From Escherichia phage RB43, in the sequence record NC_007023.1: a stretch of DNA of 64,000 nt. One strand, given 5' to 3'. The notes under the pieces were generated by a model. The model was not told the DNA's origin, made no database searches, and saw nothing but the letters and a program-made list of their open reading frames with translations. The translations under genes were made by a program, and so were the position numbers. Shown piece after piece: positions 3,934-58,483 of this stretch (positions are counted from its first letter, which is position 1; the number at the start of each line of letters is the position of its first letter).

Positions 3934-4005
3934 TTTACATCCTCCTAATCGGTAGCGGGAGTAATATAACAAAAAAGCCCCTGCATCGCAAGGGCTTAAT
4001 GTAAA

Positions 4006-9628: not shown

Positions 9629-9958
9629 TTAACGTAAGTATTTGACATACCCAGACGCATCGATGCTGTTTTCTGGGTTGTTGTAGATGTTACCACGAAT
9701 ACCCTTAGCAGGTGCTTTCCAGCCAGCGGCTTTGTAGATATTCCCGTCATTATCCAGGAATCCGGCAACTGAACGCTGGTTGAACATTTCACCAGTTTCT
9801 TTGTTGCGAGTATCCTGCACGATGCGGTGATACTTACGACCTTTCTCCAGAGTGAAAACAGTTTCAAACGGAGAATCCTGGAAACGTGCGTTACGAGCAA
9901 CGAACATCGCGTTCAGGTAAGGTGCTGCGGCGTTAGCGAGAGTTTCAAAAGTATTCAT
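9629..9958 (-). CDS. hypothetical protein (109 aa)
   Basis: ATG (MNTFETL) 7 nt after AAGGAGA; preceded by conserved promoter-leader cassette. Confidence 0.5.
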   Translation of the reverse strand: MNTFETLANAAAPYLNAMFVARNARFQDSPFETVFTLEKGRKYHRIVQDTRNKETGEMFNQRSVAGFLDNDGNIYKAAGWKAPAKGIRGNIYNNPENSIDASGYVKYLR

Positions 9959-9990
9959 GGTAAATCTCCTTAGTTCGTTTCGATGTGTGT

Positions 9991-10019
9991 ACTGTATCAA
10001 AGTCGGTATTTTAAAGCAA
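9991..10019 (-). promoter_or_regulatory. promoter (TTGCTT-N17-TACAGT; -35 region also matches MotA-box TGCTTTA) with conserved leader
   Basis: Read on minus strand; followed by leader GTACACACATCGAAACGAAC shared with three other genes. Confidence 0.45.
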
Positions 10020-10024
10020 GCGTT

Positions 10025-10237
10025 TTATTGATTTTCGAGCAAATAATTTAAATGGGCTTTCAGTGCCGGAAGTTCAGCAATATGATTCTGCTTAACTTTC
10101 TCATACTCTTTACGTTCCCACGGTTCCAGATCAGAAGCCAGTGCTTCATTGCAGTATGCGATCCCACGTTCCGCGTCTTGAACCATTTGGGTCCACTGTT
10201 TTACCGCTTGTTGGTGCATTGAACCGTTAACCATCAT
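10025..10237 (-). CDS. hypothetical protein (about 70 aa)
   Basis: ORF; ATG 8 nt after AGGGGAGGAA. Confidence 0.4.
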   Translation of the reverse strand: MMVNGSMHQQAVKQWTQMVQDAERGIAYCNEALASDLEPWERKEYEKVKQNHIAELPALKAHLNYLLENQ

Positions 10238-10461
10238 AATCATTTCCTCCCCTTGTTTTGATGGGATAACTATATCAAAGCTACCCCGCGAAGTCTTTAG
10301 CAAAAAGTGCTATGAATGCACCCAATTTCCGATCGCTACGATAAAGCAGGTAATGAAAGGTGCATTACAGAAAAAGTAGATCCCGTAATCAAATTCGGGA
10401 AGTTTAAAATTGTGGGCTGCGAGATAAACAAAGTTAGCAAACACCCACAAAGAAAAGACGA

Positions 10462-10686: not shown

Positions 10687-10835
10687 ACGATAACCTCAGC
10701 GAGTTTAGCAGGTTTTGCTTCTGGTCTGATTTTCAGAGCATCATTTAAATTGTTTTCAACCATCGCTACTGCGTCTTTTTCGTTGAACCCGTTTTTAACC
10801 AGGGCTTTAACTACTTTGGCTTCTAAGTTTTTCAT
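10674..10835 (-). CDS. hypothetical small protein (53 aa)
   Basis: ATG (MKNLEAKVV) directly after conserved leader ...CGAAACGAAACAGACAAAGGAACGCATC. Confidence 0.4.
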   Translation of the reverse strand: MKNLEAKVVKALVKNGFNEKDAVAMVENNLNDALKIRPEAKPAKLAEVIVCIM

Positions 10836-10871
10836 GATGCGTTCCTTTGTCTGTTTCGTTTCGATGTGTGT

Positions 10872-10900
10872 AATATACTGCATATCGAAATTCGGGTCAA
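10872..10900 (-). promoter_or_regulatory. sigma70-like promoter (TTGACC-N17-TATATT) with conserved leader
   Basis: Read on minus strand; followed by TACACACATCGAAACGAAACAG leader. Confidence 0.5.
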
Positions 10901-11422: not shown

Positions 11423-11460
11423 TATACAAAAAAGCCCCCTGCATTGCAAGAGGCTTCTTT
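11423..11460 (-). terminator. terminator hairpin of the GCCC-TGCA/TGCA-GGGC family with embedded -35 and downstream TATATT
   Basis: Minus strand AAGCCTCTTGCAATGCAGGGGGCTTTTTTGTATATT. Confidence 0.5.
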
Positions 11461-12167: not shown

Positions 12168-12197
12168 AAGCCCCTGCACGAATGCAAGGGCTTTTTA
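12168..12197 (-). terminator. terminator hairpin (same family) with embedded -35 TTGCAT
   Basis: Minus strand AAAAAGCCCTTGCATTCGTGCAGGGGCTTTGTTATTTT after LysM gene stop. Confidence 0.55.
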
Positions 12198-26330: not shown

Positions 26331-26369
26331 CAATATAACAAAGCCCTTGCAGAAATGCAAGGGCTTTTT
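26331..26369 (-). terminator. terminator hairpin (same family) with embedded -35 TTGCAT and downstream TATATT
   Basis: Minus strand AAAAAGCCCTTGCATTTCTGCAAGGGCTTTGTTATATTG. Confidence 0.55.
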
Positions 26370-55073: not shown

Positions 55074-55586
55074 TTGACAGAACTTGATGAACTCATTGAC
55101 AGTTTACGAATAGATTTCGAAGCTGGTAAGTGTTTCTGGGCTAAGAAGATAACCAAAAAGACTGTTGTTGGAGAAGAAGCGGGTTCCGTCCGTCCCGATG
55201 GTTATTGTAGAATCCGGTTCAAAGGAAAATATTACTACCGTCATCGAGTCATCTTTTATGCACGGAATAGGTTTCTTCCTGACGTTGTTGACCACATAAA
55301 AGAGGTTGACAATGGCGACGGTGTAGGTAATATTCAGGCAGCAACTCATCAACAGAATATGATGAAACAAAATATCAATTCGTTGAATAAATCTGGTTGC
55401 CCTGGTGTATCATGGGATACACAAAGAAACAAATGGCTTTCCACTATTAAAAAGGATGGAAAGAATATCTATATAGGTCGGTTTGCGTCTTATGATGACG
55501 CGGTTACTGCCCGAATTAACAAAGAAAAAGAACTATTTGGAAACTTTTATAATGAGCACAAACGCAAAGCCTGTAATTCTGACTGA
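55074..55586 (+). CDS. HNH homing endonuclease with AP2-like domain (paralogue of 16103..16600)
   Basis: YYRHRVIFYARNRFLPDVVDHIKEVD and GVSWDTQRNKWLSTIKKDGKNIYIGRFASYDDA. Confidence 0.7.
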   Translation: MTELDELIDSLRIDFEAGKCFWAKKITKKTVVGEEAGSVRPDGYCRIRFKGKYYYRHRVIFYARNRFLPDVVDHIKEVDNGDGVGNIQAATHQQNMMKQNINSLNKSGCPGVSWDTQRNKWLSTIKKDGKNIYIGRFASYDDAVTARINKEKELFGNFYNEHKRKACNSD

Positions 55587-56181
55587 TATTGACGGGATCG
55601 CCGTAAAATGGCAGTCGGGGTTGCCGTTCTTTTTGTCTAAACACAATATGCCTACTGATATTGCTCTGGACATGGTCACCGATGAAAGATTTCGTGATAT
55701 GACCGAAATATTCGGGTGTGATCACCAACTGGCTAAAATCCTGATGGAAGAATATAACAACAGTTCGTTTATTCGCTATCTAAGCGCGTATGACGATGCG
55801 TTAGTTGTGATCAACCGTCTGAAAGCCAAATATGATTTCGTCGCTGTCACGGCGCTGGGAACCACTCCTACGGCAAGTCTGAACCGTATTGCAAACCTGA
55901 ACACATTGTTCCCGTCTGCATTTCGTGAAGTGATGGTCGTCGGGCATGGTGAAACAAAAACACATCGTTACCTGGAAGCGAAAGCCAAATACGGATCGCG
56001 GTTGGTTTGCTTTGTTGATGACCTTGCGGTAAACTTAAACGAGTGTCATAACGTTATCAGTCAGTTGCCGTTATTTCACATGTTGCGTGGTGAACGTGAA
56101 CAACCAAATGTTCCGCACAGTATCGTAAAATCATGGTTTGAAATTGAAGAGAAATTAGATGATCTTATCAATATTGAATGA
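55552..56181 (+). CDS. HAD-superfamily hydrolase (possible 5'(3')-deoxyribonucleotidase)
   Basis: Motif I ILTDIDGI, motif IV CFVDDL; start overlaps HNH gene 3' end. Confidence 0.5.
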   Translation: MSTNAKPVILTDIDGIAVKWQSGLPFFLSKHNMPTDIALDMVTDERFRDMTEIFGCDHQLAKILMEEYNNSSFIRYLSAYDDALVVINRLKAKYDFVAVTALGTTPTASLNRIANLNTLFPSAFREVMVVGHGETKTHRYLEAKAKYGSRLVCFVDDLAVNLNECHNVISQLPLFHMLRGEREQPNVPHSIVKSWFEIEEKLDDLINIE

Positions 56182-57682
56182 ACTTGCATCGACTCTGAAA
56201 ACCTCAGAGAAGGAAGCAATTTTAAAACGTAATGCAAACAACCTATTGTTGAAAGAGATTTTCCGAATTACGTACACAAAACAGATTATGTTCTATGTGC
56301 GTAAGTTTCCCCAGGTGGACGGCAAACCAGGAACAACCCCGCTATCAAATGCAATCGCGGACCTGATGTCCGATTTAGCATCGCGGAAGTATACAGGTAA
56401 TGCAGCCCGCGATCGCCTGATGGATATTGTGTCATCAGTAAACGAGAACGATCGCGAAGTGTTGCGCCGTATCATTAACCGCGATCTTGAATGTGGTGCG
56501 GGTACAACTCTGCCAAACCGCGTATGGAAGAAACTTATTCCAGAACAGCCTCAATGCCTCGCTACGCCGTTTAGTGAAAAAGCCTTAAAACGTATTCGCT
56601 TCCCTGCTTACTCTCAGCTTAAAGCCGATGGTGCGCGTTGTATGTCGGATCTGTTAGAAGACCAGATTCGCAAAGCAACCCGCGCTGGAAATGAGTATAC
56701 AGGTTTGGTTGATCTGGATAAGGATTTGAAAAAGATCCGCGAATATCTGGGTTATGATGTTGTGCTGGATGGAGAATTGATTTATGTCCCTACTGAAAAA
56801 GCTGTTATCGAACCTGCAAGCGGGATTCCTTTTAGTCTTGCTGGGTTTATGGATGATGACGACGATGATATTTCTGGTCTTGTGGCAGATGTTCGACGGG
56901 AAACTACCGAGAACGAAACACTGGAAGAAGCGAAACGCGAAGAGGGCAACGGGATTGTAAACAAATCCCTGAAAGGCACTATTAGCGACGAAGAACAGCG
57001 CAACATTGTATATGTTGTCTGGGACATCATACCGTATGAAGTTTATTATGGCGATGCTCCGAGTGTTCAACCGTATTGCGATCGTTTGTCTATCCTGGAT
57101 GGTGCTCTGGCTGGTTCTGGGGTATCGTGTGTTAAGTTAATCCCTTCTCGCGTTGTGTATAACATTGCAGAAGCAAAACTGGATTACAACAACTATCGAA
57201 ATGACGGTAAAGAGGGTTCTATCCTGAAAAATACCGATTTCGTCTGGAAGGATTCACGCGTTGCGGACCAGGTTAAGTTGAAGAACAAAACCCCGATTGA
57301 ACTACGGATCATCGACGTATACGCGCATACCAAAGAACCCCATAAAGTAGGTGGTTTTGTGGTTGAAGACTTATCAGGCGAAGCCAGGACAAACACAGGT
57401 TCCGGTCTGACTGATACAGACTACCGCTATGATGAAGATGGTATTACGCGTGTGTATATCCCGTTAGAAGAACGCGGAGAACTGGATCGCGAATACATCA
57501 TGGCGAACAAAGATGACTATATCGGCGCTATCGTCGAAATGGAAGTTGACGGACTCCAGAAGTCTAAGACGCGTAAGAAGGGCGAACCTGAATACAGTTT
57601 CTTCTTACCAATCATCAAGAAGATTCGACGCGACAAGACCGAACCGGATGACATTCACGTTATCTTTGCAGATTTGTTTTAA
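56159..57682 (+). CDS. 30: ATP-dependent DNA ligase
   Basis: MILSILNELAS N-term, KADGAR adenylation motif, colinear with T4 ligase. Confidence 0.9.
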   Translation: MILSILNELASTLKTSEKEAILKRNANNLLLKEIFRITYTKQIMFYVRKFPQVDGKPGTTPLSNAIADLMSDLASRKYTGNAARDRLMDIVSSVNENDREVLRRIINRDLECGAGTTLPNRVWKKLIPEQPQCLATPFSEKALKRIRFPAYSQLKADGARCMSDLLEDQIRKATRAGNEYTGLVDLDKDLKKIREYLGYDVVLDGELIYVPTEKAVIEPASGIPFSLAGFMDDDDDDISGLVADVRRETTENETLEEAKREEGNGIVNKSLKGTISDEEQRNIVYVVWDIIPYEVYYGDAPSVQPYCDRLSILDGALAGSGVSCVKLIPSRVVYNIAEAKLDYNNYRNDGKEGSILKNTDFVWKDSRVADQVKLKNKTPIELRIIDVYAHTKEPHKVGGFVVEDLSGEARTNTGSGLTDTDYRYDEDGITRVYIPLEERGELDREYIMANKDDYIGAIVEMEVDGLQKSKTRKKGEPEYSFFLPIIKKIRRDKTEPDDIHVIFADLF

Positions 57683-57700
57683 ATAGCACTTTTTGTTAAA

Positions 57701-57737
57701 GAAGCCCCTTGCGTAAGTGAGGGGCTTTTGTTATTGT
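57701..57737 (+). terminator. terminator hairpin (GCCCCTTGCG...GGGGC) with embedded -35 TTGCGT and -10 TATTGT 17 bp later
   Basis: GAAGCCCCTTGCGTAAGTGAGGGGCTTTTGTTATTGT. Confidence 0.55.
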
Positions 57738-57774
57738 ACACACATCGAAACGAAACAGACAAAAGGAACATCCC

Positions 57775-58044
57775 ATGAACATCAATAAAGAACTCGAAGG
57801 CAAAGTAATCAACCTGGCAGACCGTGCGCGGTTTGAAAAGCTGGCTAATGGTGGTGAATCTCTGGGTGATGCAGTAGCATTATTCGAAAGACTTCGTGTT
57901 AAACGTGTTGTAGATGGCTGGGTTATCGCTCTCCCTGTTGCAGACGAAGACAAAGCGGTTTACGATCCTGTTGCCGATTCATGGGATATTGAAATCTGTC
58001 TGGTTAATATTGAAGTAGAACTTTGCTTCGAGGAAGAAAAATAA
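57775..58044 (+). CDS. hypothetical protein (89 aa)
   Basis: ATG preceded by conserved leader ACACACATCGAAACGAAACAGACAAAAGGAACATCCC. Confidence 0.5.
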   Translation: MNINKELEGKVINLADRARFEKLANGGESLGDAVALFERLRVKRVVDGWVIALPVADEDKAVYDPVADSWDIEICLVNIEVELCFEEEK

Positions 58045-58057
58045 TTAATTAAACCAC

Positions 58058-58086
58058 TTGCACATCGCGAGGGGTTTTGATACATT
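58058..58086 (+). promoter_or_regulatory. sigma70-like promoter (TTGCAC-N17-TACATT) with conserved leader
   Basis: Followed by CCATATCGAAACGAAAGGAG leader and ATG 58116. Confidence 0.5.
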
Positions 58087-58115
58087 ACCCATATCGAAAC
58101 GAAAGGAGAAACATC

Positions 58116-58295
58116 ATGAAAGTTATGCACACTGCGAACCAACTTCAAAACGGCAACTACGCGATCCACGATGCTATCGGTGCGCTGGTTGGGGTTTATC
58201 TTCCTGGTAGCAAATACCTTGAAGTTAGTGGGAATACCTTTACTGATGTTGAAAACATCGAAGCAGCAATGGAAATCATTGGTGAACTGAAATGA
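58116..58295 (+). CDS. hypothetical protein (59 aa)
   Basis: ATG 7 nt after AAAGGAGAA. Confidence 0.45.
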   Translation: MKVMHTANQLQNGNYAIHDAIGALVGVYLPGSKYLEVSGNTFTDVENIEAAMEIIGELK

Positions 58296-58483
58296 GCAAG
58301 AAACTCGAAACATGGGAAACCATCAGCGAAGATCCGAATCTTCGTTGGTGTTGTGCGAAAACTGGTTTTGATGCTGCATGGGGTGCTACTCCAGAACAGG
58401 CGCGAGAAAACTGGGAACATCAGCAAATGTTCTTTGCGCATAAAACCCCATTCAATTATGACGGGAGTCACATAGCAGCATGA
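58292..58483 (+). CDS. hypothetical protein (63 aa)
   Basis: ORF track; ATGA coupling. Confidence 0.4.
   Translation: MSKKLETWETISEDPNLRWCCAKTGFDAAWGATPEQARENWEHQQMFFAHKTPFNYDGSHIAA

Follow-up and report, generated by a model that had tools for sequence, protein, structure and literature searches.

The locus downstream of the DNA ligase gene

We analysed a 64,000-nucleotide (nt) window of the genome of Escherichia phage RB43 (record NC_007023.1); over the 3.2 kb around the two sites described here it is 100% identical to this T4-like phage (Pseudotevenvirus). The region begins with an open reading frame (ORF) of 507 amino acids (aa; 56159-57682) that is, by annotation in relatives, a DNA ligase of the T4 gp30 type. 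Two small ORFs follow, RB43ORF096w and RB43ORF097w, and in front of each stands a short intergenic segment, here called cassette 1 and cassette 2 (Table 1). Each occupies the gap from one gene's stop codon to the start codon that follows and combines a hairpin, a pair of sigma-70-type promoter boxes and a leader with a Shine-Dalgarno sequence. We read both as composite regulatory cassettes of the type described in T4-like phages as promoter-early stem-loops (PeSLs), a reading to which, judging from the sequence, we would give a probability of about 0.8.

Both sites, and the terminator overlapping the first of them, are already published predictions at the same positions, since Nolan et al. (2006; PMC1524935) worked on RB43 in the same coordinates as the window, and their lists match it. 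Among the 43 early promoters predicted there for RB43, Additional file 3 gives Pe:57694 (57694-57744, plus strand, score 23.7) and Pe:58043 (58043-58093, plus strand, score 25.1). Additional file 6 gives the TransTerm terminator 57704-57725 ("30-->RB43ORF096w"), which is the cassette 1 hairpin. The phage-trained hidden Markov model (HMM) used in 2006 ranks cassette 2 6th and cassette 1 8th among the 40 of 43 RB43 sites listed. It is because this terminator sits inside the first early promoter that the sites can be classed as PeSL-type composites; the lists also place TransTerm terminators inside predicted early promoters of the window at 3977-3995, 11434-11454, 12170-12191 and 26343-26364. The available text of Nolan et al. 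carries no comment on the overlap of promoter and terminator, and its 51-nt promoter model ends at the start site (57744 in cassette 1), so that the leader shared by the sites lies outside the model. The authors concluded that the novel ORFs are expressed with the early genes.

Cassette 1 opens right at the ligase stop with aaATAGCACTTTTTGTTAAAG (57681-57701), the first two bases of which are the end of the TAA. This 21-mer corresponds to a repeat known from phage TLS and T1-like phages and contains TAGCA-N5-TGTTA as an inverted repeat; at about -63 to -43, it stands where an UP element would. The hairpin, with A-rich and T-rich runs on its flanks, folds at -22.4 kcal/mol (z = -4.4). Its T-tract runs into the -10 box, and the end of the tract is the TG of the extended -10. 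A discriminator of 6 nt, ACACAC, separates TATTGT from the predicted start, from which the sequence reads CA(+1)TCGAAACGAAACAGAC, free of U from +3 to +26, with ATCGAAACGAAA at positions +1 to +12. The leader is purine-rich (2 U in 31 nt), unstructured (minimum free energy, MFE, -1.2 kcal/mol; z = +1.1) and carries the Shine-Dalgarno sequence GGA at 57765-57767. The first bases of the cassette (TAAATAGCACTTTTTGTTAAAG, 57680-57701) hold stop codons in three frames (TAA 57680, TAG 57684, TAA 57697), which would close any upstream frame after recombination but may also be no more than a by-product of AT-richness.

The cassette 2 hairpin is weaker: it has an A/G mismatch in RB43 and folds at -11 kcal/mol (z = -2.3) with five pairs called. 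The TG of its extended -10 is again the end of the terminator T-tract, the -10 hexamer TACATT occupies 58081-58086, and the discriminator ACCCAT has 6 nt. The leader, with 2 U in 23 nt and the Shine-Dalgarno sequence GGAG at 58105-58108, folds no better than shuffled sequences. A scan of RB43 for the T1-type 21-mer found no copy in cassette 2. The first-pass annotation of this DNA, made from the letters alone, had described the same two cassettes: TTGCGT-N17-TATTGT before the ATG at 57775 reads as it claimed, and TTGCAC-N17-TACATT before the ATG at 58116 is present as described, except that two bases, AC, following TACATT had been dropped.

An alternative TTG start for ORF097w at 58077, which would translate the leader, is unlikely because GGAG stands 7 nt before the ATG at 58116, the likely start. 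In Cronobacter phage Banach, the annotation of gp175 (segment 2367-2585) begins at a GTG within the promoter and thereby has the leader translated as VVHYPYRNERRNI; the window ORF 58077-58295, with its TTG start, is the same artefact. Homologues of ORF096w were found only in T4-like phages.

Table 1. Positions of the two cassettes, the ORFs behind them and the minus-strand cassettes in the window.
Feature	Position	Strand	Basis or remark
Cassette 1, extent	57680 (TAA) to 57775 (ATG)	+	AT-rich stretch 57690-57703
T1-type 21-nt repeat aaATAGCACtttTTGtTAAAg	57681..57701	+	16 of 17 defined positions of TLS consensus aaATAGCACnnnTTGnTAAAA
Terminator hairpin	57700..57729	+	13 pairs (6 G-C), core GCCCC/GGGGC, loop GTAA, then T-tract
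-35 box TTGCGT	57709..57714	+	in 5' arm and loop of terminator hairpin; within Pe:57694
Extended -10 TGT-TATTGT	57729..57737 (hexamer 57732-57737)	+	17-nt spacer to -35
Predicted start A 57744 (C at -1) and 31-nt leader ATCGAAACGAAACAGACAAAAGGAACATCCC	57744..57774	+	geometry; end of 51-nt 2006 model
RB43ORF096w, 89 aa, PHROG 7207	57775..58044	+	ORF list; function not assigned
Cassette 2, extent	58042 (TAA) to 58116 (ATG)	+	AT-rich stretch 58040-58053
Decayed terminator hairpin CCACTTGC-ACATC-GCGAGGGG, then TTTT	58054..58078	+	folding
Promoter: -35 TTGCAC 58058-58063, N17, extended -10 TGA-TACATT 58078-58086	58058..58086	+	Pe:58043
Predicted start A 58093 and 23-nt leader ATCGAAACGAAAGGAGAAACATC	58093..58115	+	geometry; ATG 58116
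RB43ORF097w, 59 aa, PHROG 14120	58116..58295	+	ORF list
Minus-strand copy: TTGCTT 10019-10014, N17, TGA-TACAGT, ACACAC, A(+1) 9984, leader ATCGAAACGAACTAAGGAGATTTACC, ATG 9958	9958..10019	-	published Pe:10033
Minus-strand copy: TTGACC 10900-10895, N17, TATATT, ACACAC, A(+1) 10865, leader ATCGAAACGAAACAGACAAAGGAACGCATC, ATG 10835	10835..10900	-	
Fifth cassette: ATAGCACTTTTTGCTAAAGA-N19-TATAGT-TATCCC-ATCAAAACAAGGGGAGG-ATG	10230-10313	-	between the two minus-strand copies

Recurrence of the cassette in RB43 and its relatives

The proposal that these two sites share one module with two others on the minus strand of the window was borne out. The four have identical geometry, and the composite pattern TTG-N20-TANNNT-N6-ATCGAAAC (that is, TTGNNN-N17-TANNNT with its start) matched the window four times against 0.00 expected from 100 shuffles, the minus-strand matches spanning 10019-9977 and 10900-10858. 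The 11-mer ATCGAAACGAA by itself had four exact matches in the window, at 57744(+), 58093(+), 9984(-) and 10865(-), against 0.14 expected. Three of the four copies are published predicted early promoters, the third being Pe:10033 (9983-10033, minus strand; Nolan et al. 2006, PMC1524935, Additional file 3). The exception, 10900(-), is not among the sites listed there; it has the best -35 box of the four and lacks a 21-mer, a terminator hairpin and a TG. The fifth cassette, 10313(-), is likewise not among the 2006 early promoters listed, and has a nearly T1-like short geometry, 1 nt longer, with no -35 box at 17 bp. The interval 9.9-12.2 kb holds at least five cassettes.

Across the full RB43 genome (HE858210) the leader occurs at nine sites, each after a TANNNT box and before a Shine-Dalgarno sequence and an ATG. 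An nhmmer profile of these nine sites retrieved eight more cassettes without the full leader (seven at E < 1e-4, one at E = 0.007), giving about 17 cassettes in all, at least nine of them leader-bearing. Wherever they were compared, the leader-less cassettes coincide with early promoters in the 2006 lists. The T1-type 21-mer is present in five copies, and since most RB43 copies do without it, it is not essential to the RB43 cassettes. The hairpins show compensatory stem changes: GCCCC/GGGGC is replaced by ACCCC/GGGGT, in Slopekvirus by GCCTC/GAGGC and in Pectobacterium phage PcCB7V by GGGG.../...CCCC; stem register and length vary among copies, and these changes come from single pairwise comparisons of paralogues and orthologues.

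The ORFs behind the RB43 cassettes are small and mutually unrelated. For the four in the window this had been stated from the outset, and BLASTP indeed gave nothing significant among them; they belong to four different PHROGs, 7207, 14120, 5014 (the ORF behind the 9984(-) copy, also DUF7717) and 9411, all without known function. An all-against-all BLASTP search for paralogy among the 16 cassette-driven RB43 ORFs recovered also returned nothing significant, and Pfam gave no informative match. What did not hold up is the view of the first-pass annotation that the four genes are a special co-regulated set, given at least nine leader-bearing copies, about 17 cassettes and the 43 early promoters listed as predicted. 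Co-regulation as early genes is plausible, the term standing here for probable membership of the early class and for nothing further. A portable unit spreading by recombination would explain the sharing at least as well, because of the insertion or deletion seen in the Citrobacter phages Miller and CfP1, the mosaic upstream halves of the cassettes, and the presence of the same unit in T1-like and rV5-like phages, all described below.

Two other identities were considered for these sites and rejected. A permissive Rfam scan of 57600-58200 for structured RNA gave best scores of 12-22 bits against gathering thresholds of 42-80, and the leaders are unstructured. A middle promoter of the MotA type (TGCTTtA at -30, 11-13 bp from the -10) was rejected because the spacing is wrong, TGCTTTA occurring only in 10019(-) and 15 nt off, and because motA is reported absent from RB43: in the available text of Nolan et al. 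(PMC1524935), MotA was detected in T4, RB69 and 44RR only.

Miller and CfP1 are 93-98% identical to RB43 at the ligase locus. Their gene order is ligase, cassette, an extra 84-aa ORF, a bidirectional terminator with a second promoter/leader cassette, and the ORF096w homologue. RB43 corresponds to the first of these cassettes up to ...AAAAGGAAC and to the second from AT(C/A)CCATG on. Since the junction between RB43 and Miller/CfP1 falls at the 3' end of the shared leader, it indicates a putative gain or loss of an ORF at the cassette. The 10865(-) unit is mosaic, because its ORF is preceded in other relatives by a complete cassette with 21-mer and hairpin and has a different upstream half in RB43. 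The hairpin of cassette 2 is intact in CfP1 and in Miller (CCCCTTGC/GCAAGGGG) and absent in Banach, and the 21-mer of Miller and CfP1 has a degraded right half-site (TGTTA to TGTTT). The genome of Banach is 84% identical to that of RB43. Both leaders are identical there, the spacer of promoter 2 is wholly replaced, the ORF096w homologue is visibly diverged, and the boxes before ORF097w read TTGCTT-N17-TACATT-N6-A without a hairpin. Related Cronobacter and Enterobacter phages match ORF096w at about 61-62% amino-acid identity.

Two further observations concern the genes around this locus. In CfP1 (segment 2766-3089, compare window 58116-58483) the homologues of ORF097w and of the 63-aa ORF that follows it form a single in-frame fusion of 107 aa (...AAMEIIGE|DPNLRWCC...), a short deletion having taken out the stop/start overlap. 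Upstream of the ligase gene, an ORF of 170 aa (55074-55586, plus strand) has an AP2-like C-terminal region; because its counterpart in Miller carries the annotation of an HNH homing endonuclease with an AP2/ERF domain, the variable region appears to adjoin a mobile endonuclease.

The same unit in T1-like and rV5-like phages

A recent report on phage TLS (PMC11447400, 2024) described 18 intergenic 21-nt repeats, aaATAGCACnnnTTGnTAAAA, about 76 nt before start codons. The repeat is also present in T1, Rtp and Rogue1. Its function is listed in that report as an open question for T1-like phages, with "stoperator" or enhancer-binding roles suggested. String searches with the 21-mer and leader sequences led, within the library of papers searched, to this one only.

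A 95-nt query from RB43 (57683-57777) matched 342 phage records at 1176 places, among them T4-like genera and Drexlerviridae; the Drexlerviridae matches (about 44-52 kb; for example Webervirus "Call" and Veterinaerplatzvirus) had 74-77% identity over about 86 nt. An exact scan of IMG/VR with the 18-mer ATAGCACTTTTTGYTAAA gave more than 120 loci, mostly on contigs of about 50 kb and with up to five copies per 12 kb. Counted from where the 18-mer begins, 113 of the 165 distinct copies have a [TC]AnnnT box at exactly +38. Strict ATCGA[AC]A[AC] cores (n = 46) start at +50 in 44 cases and at +61 in two, against a background of 0.6%, and TGn precedes the -10 in 25 of the 46, as it does in three of the four window copies. 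The T1-like consensus is aaATAGCACTTTTTGtTAAAAc-N-G.tATaaT-N6-cAtcgaaAcgaA-N4-gga, and the usual place of the ATG is about +25 to +27. Over 118 T1-like copies the consensus is position-specific, with C(-1) in 79% and A(+1) in 88%, and thymine (U in the RNA) falls to 1-10% at +4 to +17 against 21-24% in the flanking columns. T1 has about 17 oriented copies of this layout, in front of early-region genes.

T1-like copies and RB43 thus have the -10 position, the CATCGAAACGAA start and a similar leader in common, and in cassette 1, as in the T1-like copies, the 21-mer comes directly after a stop codon and is oriented with transcription. The spacing differs. T1-like phages lack a -35 hexamer, and their repeat begins about 76 nt ahead of the ATG and 50 nt ahead of the predicted start. 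For ATAGCAC in RB43 cassette 1 these distances are 92 nt and 61 nt; an extra 11 nt inside the hairpin create the -35 box at 17 bp, and the leader is longer as well. From TTGYTA of the repeat to the -10 there are 22 nt in T1-like phages and 33 nt in RB43 and Slopekvirus, where a TTGCNN -35 box stands at 17 nt. The centre of the inverted repeat TAGCA-N5-TGYTA accordingly falls at -42 in T1-like phages and, one helical turn away, at -53 in RB43. The 21-mer could serve as an UP-like element or bind a protein. In T1 the gene ST23 (NC_005833 35979-36460), annotated "transcriptional regulator" and weakly Cro-like below the Pfam cut-off, adjoins a divergent palindromic 21-mer (TAGCA-N5-TGCTA), which makes its product a candidate binder in T1-like phages. 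As a regulator shared with RB43 it was rejected, there being no homologue in RB43, and it is a lead for T1 only.

In one case the cassette is found together with its gene. The RB43 frd.1-like ORF and the cassette in front of it have colinear counterparts on a Webervirus-like contig. Nucleotide identity of the ORF is 69%, and the two cassettes differ by an 11-nt insertion in the hairpin, which creates the -35 box. This indicates a probable transfer of promoter plus gene between phage families. The ORF (DUF5417; HE858210 94664-95030, minus strand) lies outside the window and has 66-72% aa identity to Klebsiella Weberviruses and 47% to T4 frd.1. A third lineage is represented by PcCB7V, in which the long leader ATCGAAACGAAACAGACAAAAGGAAC stands behind a hairpin-embedded TTGACT and TGc-TATTCT, and by Salmonella phage SSBI34, with the leader in a similar form; both are Vequintavirinae (rV5-like). 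About 26 leader nucleotides are identical between RB43 and the Pectobacterium Vequintavirinae phage.

A search of 5,426 complete E. coli genomes did not find the cassette. Among 185,579 species-representative genomes the 22-nt leader was found only on NZ_JBHSCL010000010.1 (178,077 bp, from the "Flagellimonas marina" assembly). That contig has two cassettes identical, over the stretches compared, to those on RB43-like contigs in IMG/VR (about 179 and 144 kb), and is probably a contaminating enterobacterial RB43-like phage in a marine Flavobacteriia assembly. A host origin of the cassette is ruled out by its absence from these E. coli and, with that one contig excepted, species-representative genomes. 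The leader within the repeat, the link to the T1 repeat and the occurrence in three lineages (Straboviridae, Drexlerviridae and Vequintavirinae) appear to be new, and the spread across families has apparently gone unreported.

Proposed function, alternatives and comparison with known systems

What the sequences show directly is the architecture, its recurrence beyond chance, a stable hairpin with compensatory changes, the insertion/deletion junction at the cassette and the spread across families. That the sites act as promoters, where transcription begins, that it is early and what the leader does are inferred. The hairpin, strong after the ligase gene and decayed before ORF097w, would terminate transcription arriving from upstream. 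Nested in it would be an early promoter for host sigma-70 RNA polymerase, with a TTGCNN -35 box in the 5' arm or loop and an extended -10 whose TG is the end of the terminator T-tract. Transcription would start at the A of C-A-TCGAAAC, these conserved first bases probably favouring initiation and promoter escape, and would yield a purine-rich, U-poor and unstructured leader of 23-31 nt ending in a Shine-Dalgarno sequence. On general grounds, such an unstructured, A/C-rich leader probably favours ribosome loading, so that start region and leader together would be suited to high expression. Each small accessory ORF would in this way be insulated from read-through and expressed early by the unmodified host RNA polymerase. 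Because it recurs through the genome, the unit of about 60-95 nt may mark the places where ORFs are gained, lost or swapped, and it would circulate among unrelated virulent enterobacterial phages.

Several points weigh against a PeSL-type cassette at these sites. The -35/-10 pairs agree with TTGACA/TATAAT at 7 of 12 positions each, a generic sigma-70 scan called neither promoter, and a literature search for published transcription start sites, RNA-seq or transcriptome data on RB43, Pseudotevenvirus, Slopekvirus or T1-like phages found none. The 12-mer hexamer pair, searched with up to two mismatches, was found 21 times against 13.5 expected, which is not above chance. With weak hexamers, a silent generic scan and a 12-mer at chance level, the signal is in the fixed geometry and the conserved leader, not in the hexamers. 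The unit does not always include termination, since the cassette 2 hairpin is degraded in RB43 and absent in Banach; a strong terminator over the -35 box and spacer, for its part, could hinder the promoter or be the sole real function of the site. At the RB43/Miller junction the exact identity is about 7 nt, at the Shine-Dalgarno sequence, and the event, whether insertion or deletion, may not have been simple homologous recombination. In a rival reading there is no promoter at all: the sites would be terminators or read-through attenuators joined to a translation-initiation leader, and the boxes incidental to hairpin and T-tract, as the weak hexamers, a -35 box that is part of the cassette 1 hairpin and a -10 box that is the AT-rich terminator tail might suggest. 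Yet the hairpin-less 10900(-) keeps TTGACC-N17-TATATT-N6-ATCGAAAC, and Banach keeps its boxes and start before ORF097w where the hairpin is gone. The fixed -10 of the 113 T1-like copies, with Y(-1)R(+1) conserved, and the high ranks of both sites in the phage-trained HMM among the promoters listed also speak for a promoter, and an efficient terminator after the ligase gene would otherwise leave five downstream ORFs promoterless. We consider a promoterless site improbable.

The conserved leader might instead be a cis-acting RNA operator, AUCGAAACGAAAC..., for an RNA-binding factor (a repressor, an endoribonuclease guide, Hfq, CsrA or S1), in which case the leader-bearing subset would be co-regulated post-transcriptionally and form a real regulon, as the first-pass annotation had it. 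Its conservation exceeds a generic need for an unstructured leader, as the roughly 26 nt shared with the Pectobacterium phage and the position-specific consensus of the T1-like copies illustrate, and it is present in only 9 of about 17 RB43 cassettes. We nevertheless regard this as unlikely: the leader lacks secondary structure and has no Rfam family at gathering score, the three lineages have no obvious common regulator, and no candidate binder was identified. The strongest conservation, moreover, lies at -1 to +11, at the start site, where T7 A1 and A3 are also alike, which points to RNA polymerase rather than to an RNA-binding factor. Somewhat less likely still is that a dimeric DNA-binding protein uses the 21-mer ATAGCAC-N3-TTGNTAAA as its operator or activator site, making cassette 1 regulated and not constitutive. 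The inverted repeat with its variable centre (TTT, GAA and AAA classes in TLS and T1), its fixed place at -42 in T1-like phages that have no -35 there, its displacement by exactly 11 bp in RB43 and Slopekvirus and the roles proposed by the TLS authors (PMC11447400) would all suit such a site. Against it, the 21-mer occurs at five RB43 sites only and is absent from cassette 2 and from both minus-strand leader copies; Miller and CfP1 have lost the intact right half-site, RB43 lacks an ST23 homologue, and an AT-rich UP-like element would also account for the alternation of T and C in the right arm. Because the T4-like form has a normal -35 at 17 bp, its promoter need not depend on the 21-mer. Least probable of all, and in our view barely credible, is that the repeat is a mere trace of recent duplication or gene conversion in RB43 and the shared leader functionless. 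Several RB43 copies are near-identical over about 33 nt, and those at 57683(+) and HE858210 95025(-) over about 95 nt, but the same start and leader recur in three lineages with unrelated spacers, discriminators and ORFs, and the leader is absent from host genomes.

For RB43 alone, PeSL-type cassettes at these sites are mostly confirmatory: the elements were predicted in 2006 and are of a known kind. The wider claim, which we would give about an even chance of being right, is that the cassette belongs to a "plug-and-play" expression module exchanged, sometimes with an ORF, among Straboviridae, Drexlerviridae and Vequintavirinae. The T1 21-nt repeat would then be the upstream half of a promoter with a fixed -10, a C(-1)A(+1)TCGAAAC start and a U-poor leader, and the T4-like form would be derived from the T1-like one, or be convertible with it, by the insertion of 11 bp into the spacer hairpin, adding a -35 box and a full terminator. 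The unit has many copies per genome in T1-like siphoviruses, is found in rV5-like myoviruses too, and is in one instance colinear with a homologous ORF (frd.1-like). Its occurrence there links the PeSL concept, so far described only in T4-like phages, to the T1-like repeat, and the wider claim, if true, would give a concrete, testable answer to the question left open by the TLS authors. It predicts early transcript starts in T1-like phages, at an A 50 nt after the start of ATAGCAC. It would also offer phage engineering, in less than 100 nt, a part with terminator, promoter, an initial transcribed sequence likely favouring escape, and leader.

PeSLs have been described in RB49 and phi1, nt-1 and KVP40, and PST and T4 (Arbiol et al. 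2010, PMC2839356; Comeau et al. 2014, PMC4122927). According to the available text of these papers, those of RB49 and phi1 were found by experiment to be strong promoters and effective terminators that flank insertions and deletions, and mini-circle formation together with promoter and terminator activity was shown for these two phages only; for RB43, Arbiol et al. mention there only "PeSL-like sequences" near gene 43. The RB43 cassettes share the published traits as far as these are set out: each spans from stop to start codon and has an AT-rich stretch, an early promoter of sigma-70 type with a stem-loop between or over its two boxes, and a 3'-terminal Shine-Dalgarno sequence; many copies precede ORFans, and insertions or deletions are bounded by the unit. 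Sigma-70-like boxes about 17 nt apart, with TG at -15/-14, are present in both cassettes. The stem-loop is clear in cassette 1 and weak in cassette 2 of RB43, with its one mismatch, and genome-wide repetition with cassette-bounded insertions or deletions is seen in the 17 cassettes, the Miller/CfP1 locus and the 10865(-) mosaic. The differences are that the RB43 consensus is TTGC(A/G)T-N17-TG-n-TATATT, whereas PeSLs are reported as near-perfect TTGACA/TATAAT; that the RB43 repeat includes a transcribed leader, C-A(+1)TCGAAACGAA..., of which the available text of both papers makes no mention; and that some RB43 copies open with the T1-type 21-mer and the unit is common to phages that are not T4-like.

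The nearest likeness at the start itself is to early promoters of T7. T7 A1, a mapped promoter of E. coli RNA polymerase, starts with CA(+1)TCGAGAGGG, having CA(+1)TCGA as in RB43, and as CA(+1)TCGAGAGGGACACGGCGAA it has no U from +3 to +20, comparable to the U-free stretch of RB43; T7 A3 starts with CA(+1)TGAAACGACAG. Unlike the RB43 cassettes, A1 and A3 have a near-consensus -35 box and no embedded terminator, and they are not repeated before many ORFs. The likeness extends over about 12 nt at the start and may be convergence; it lends support both to the assigned start site and to the first bases having a part in initiation or escape.

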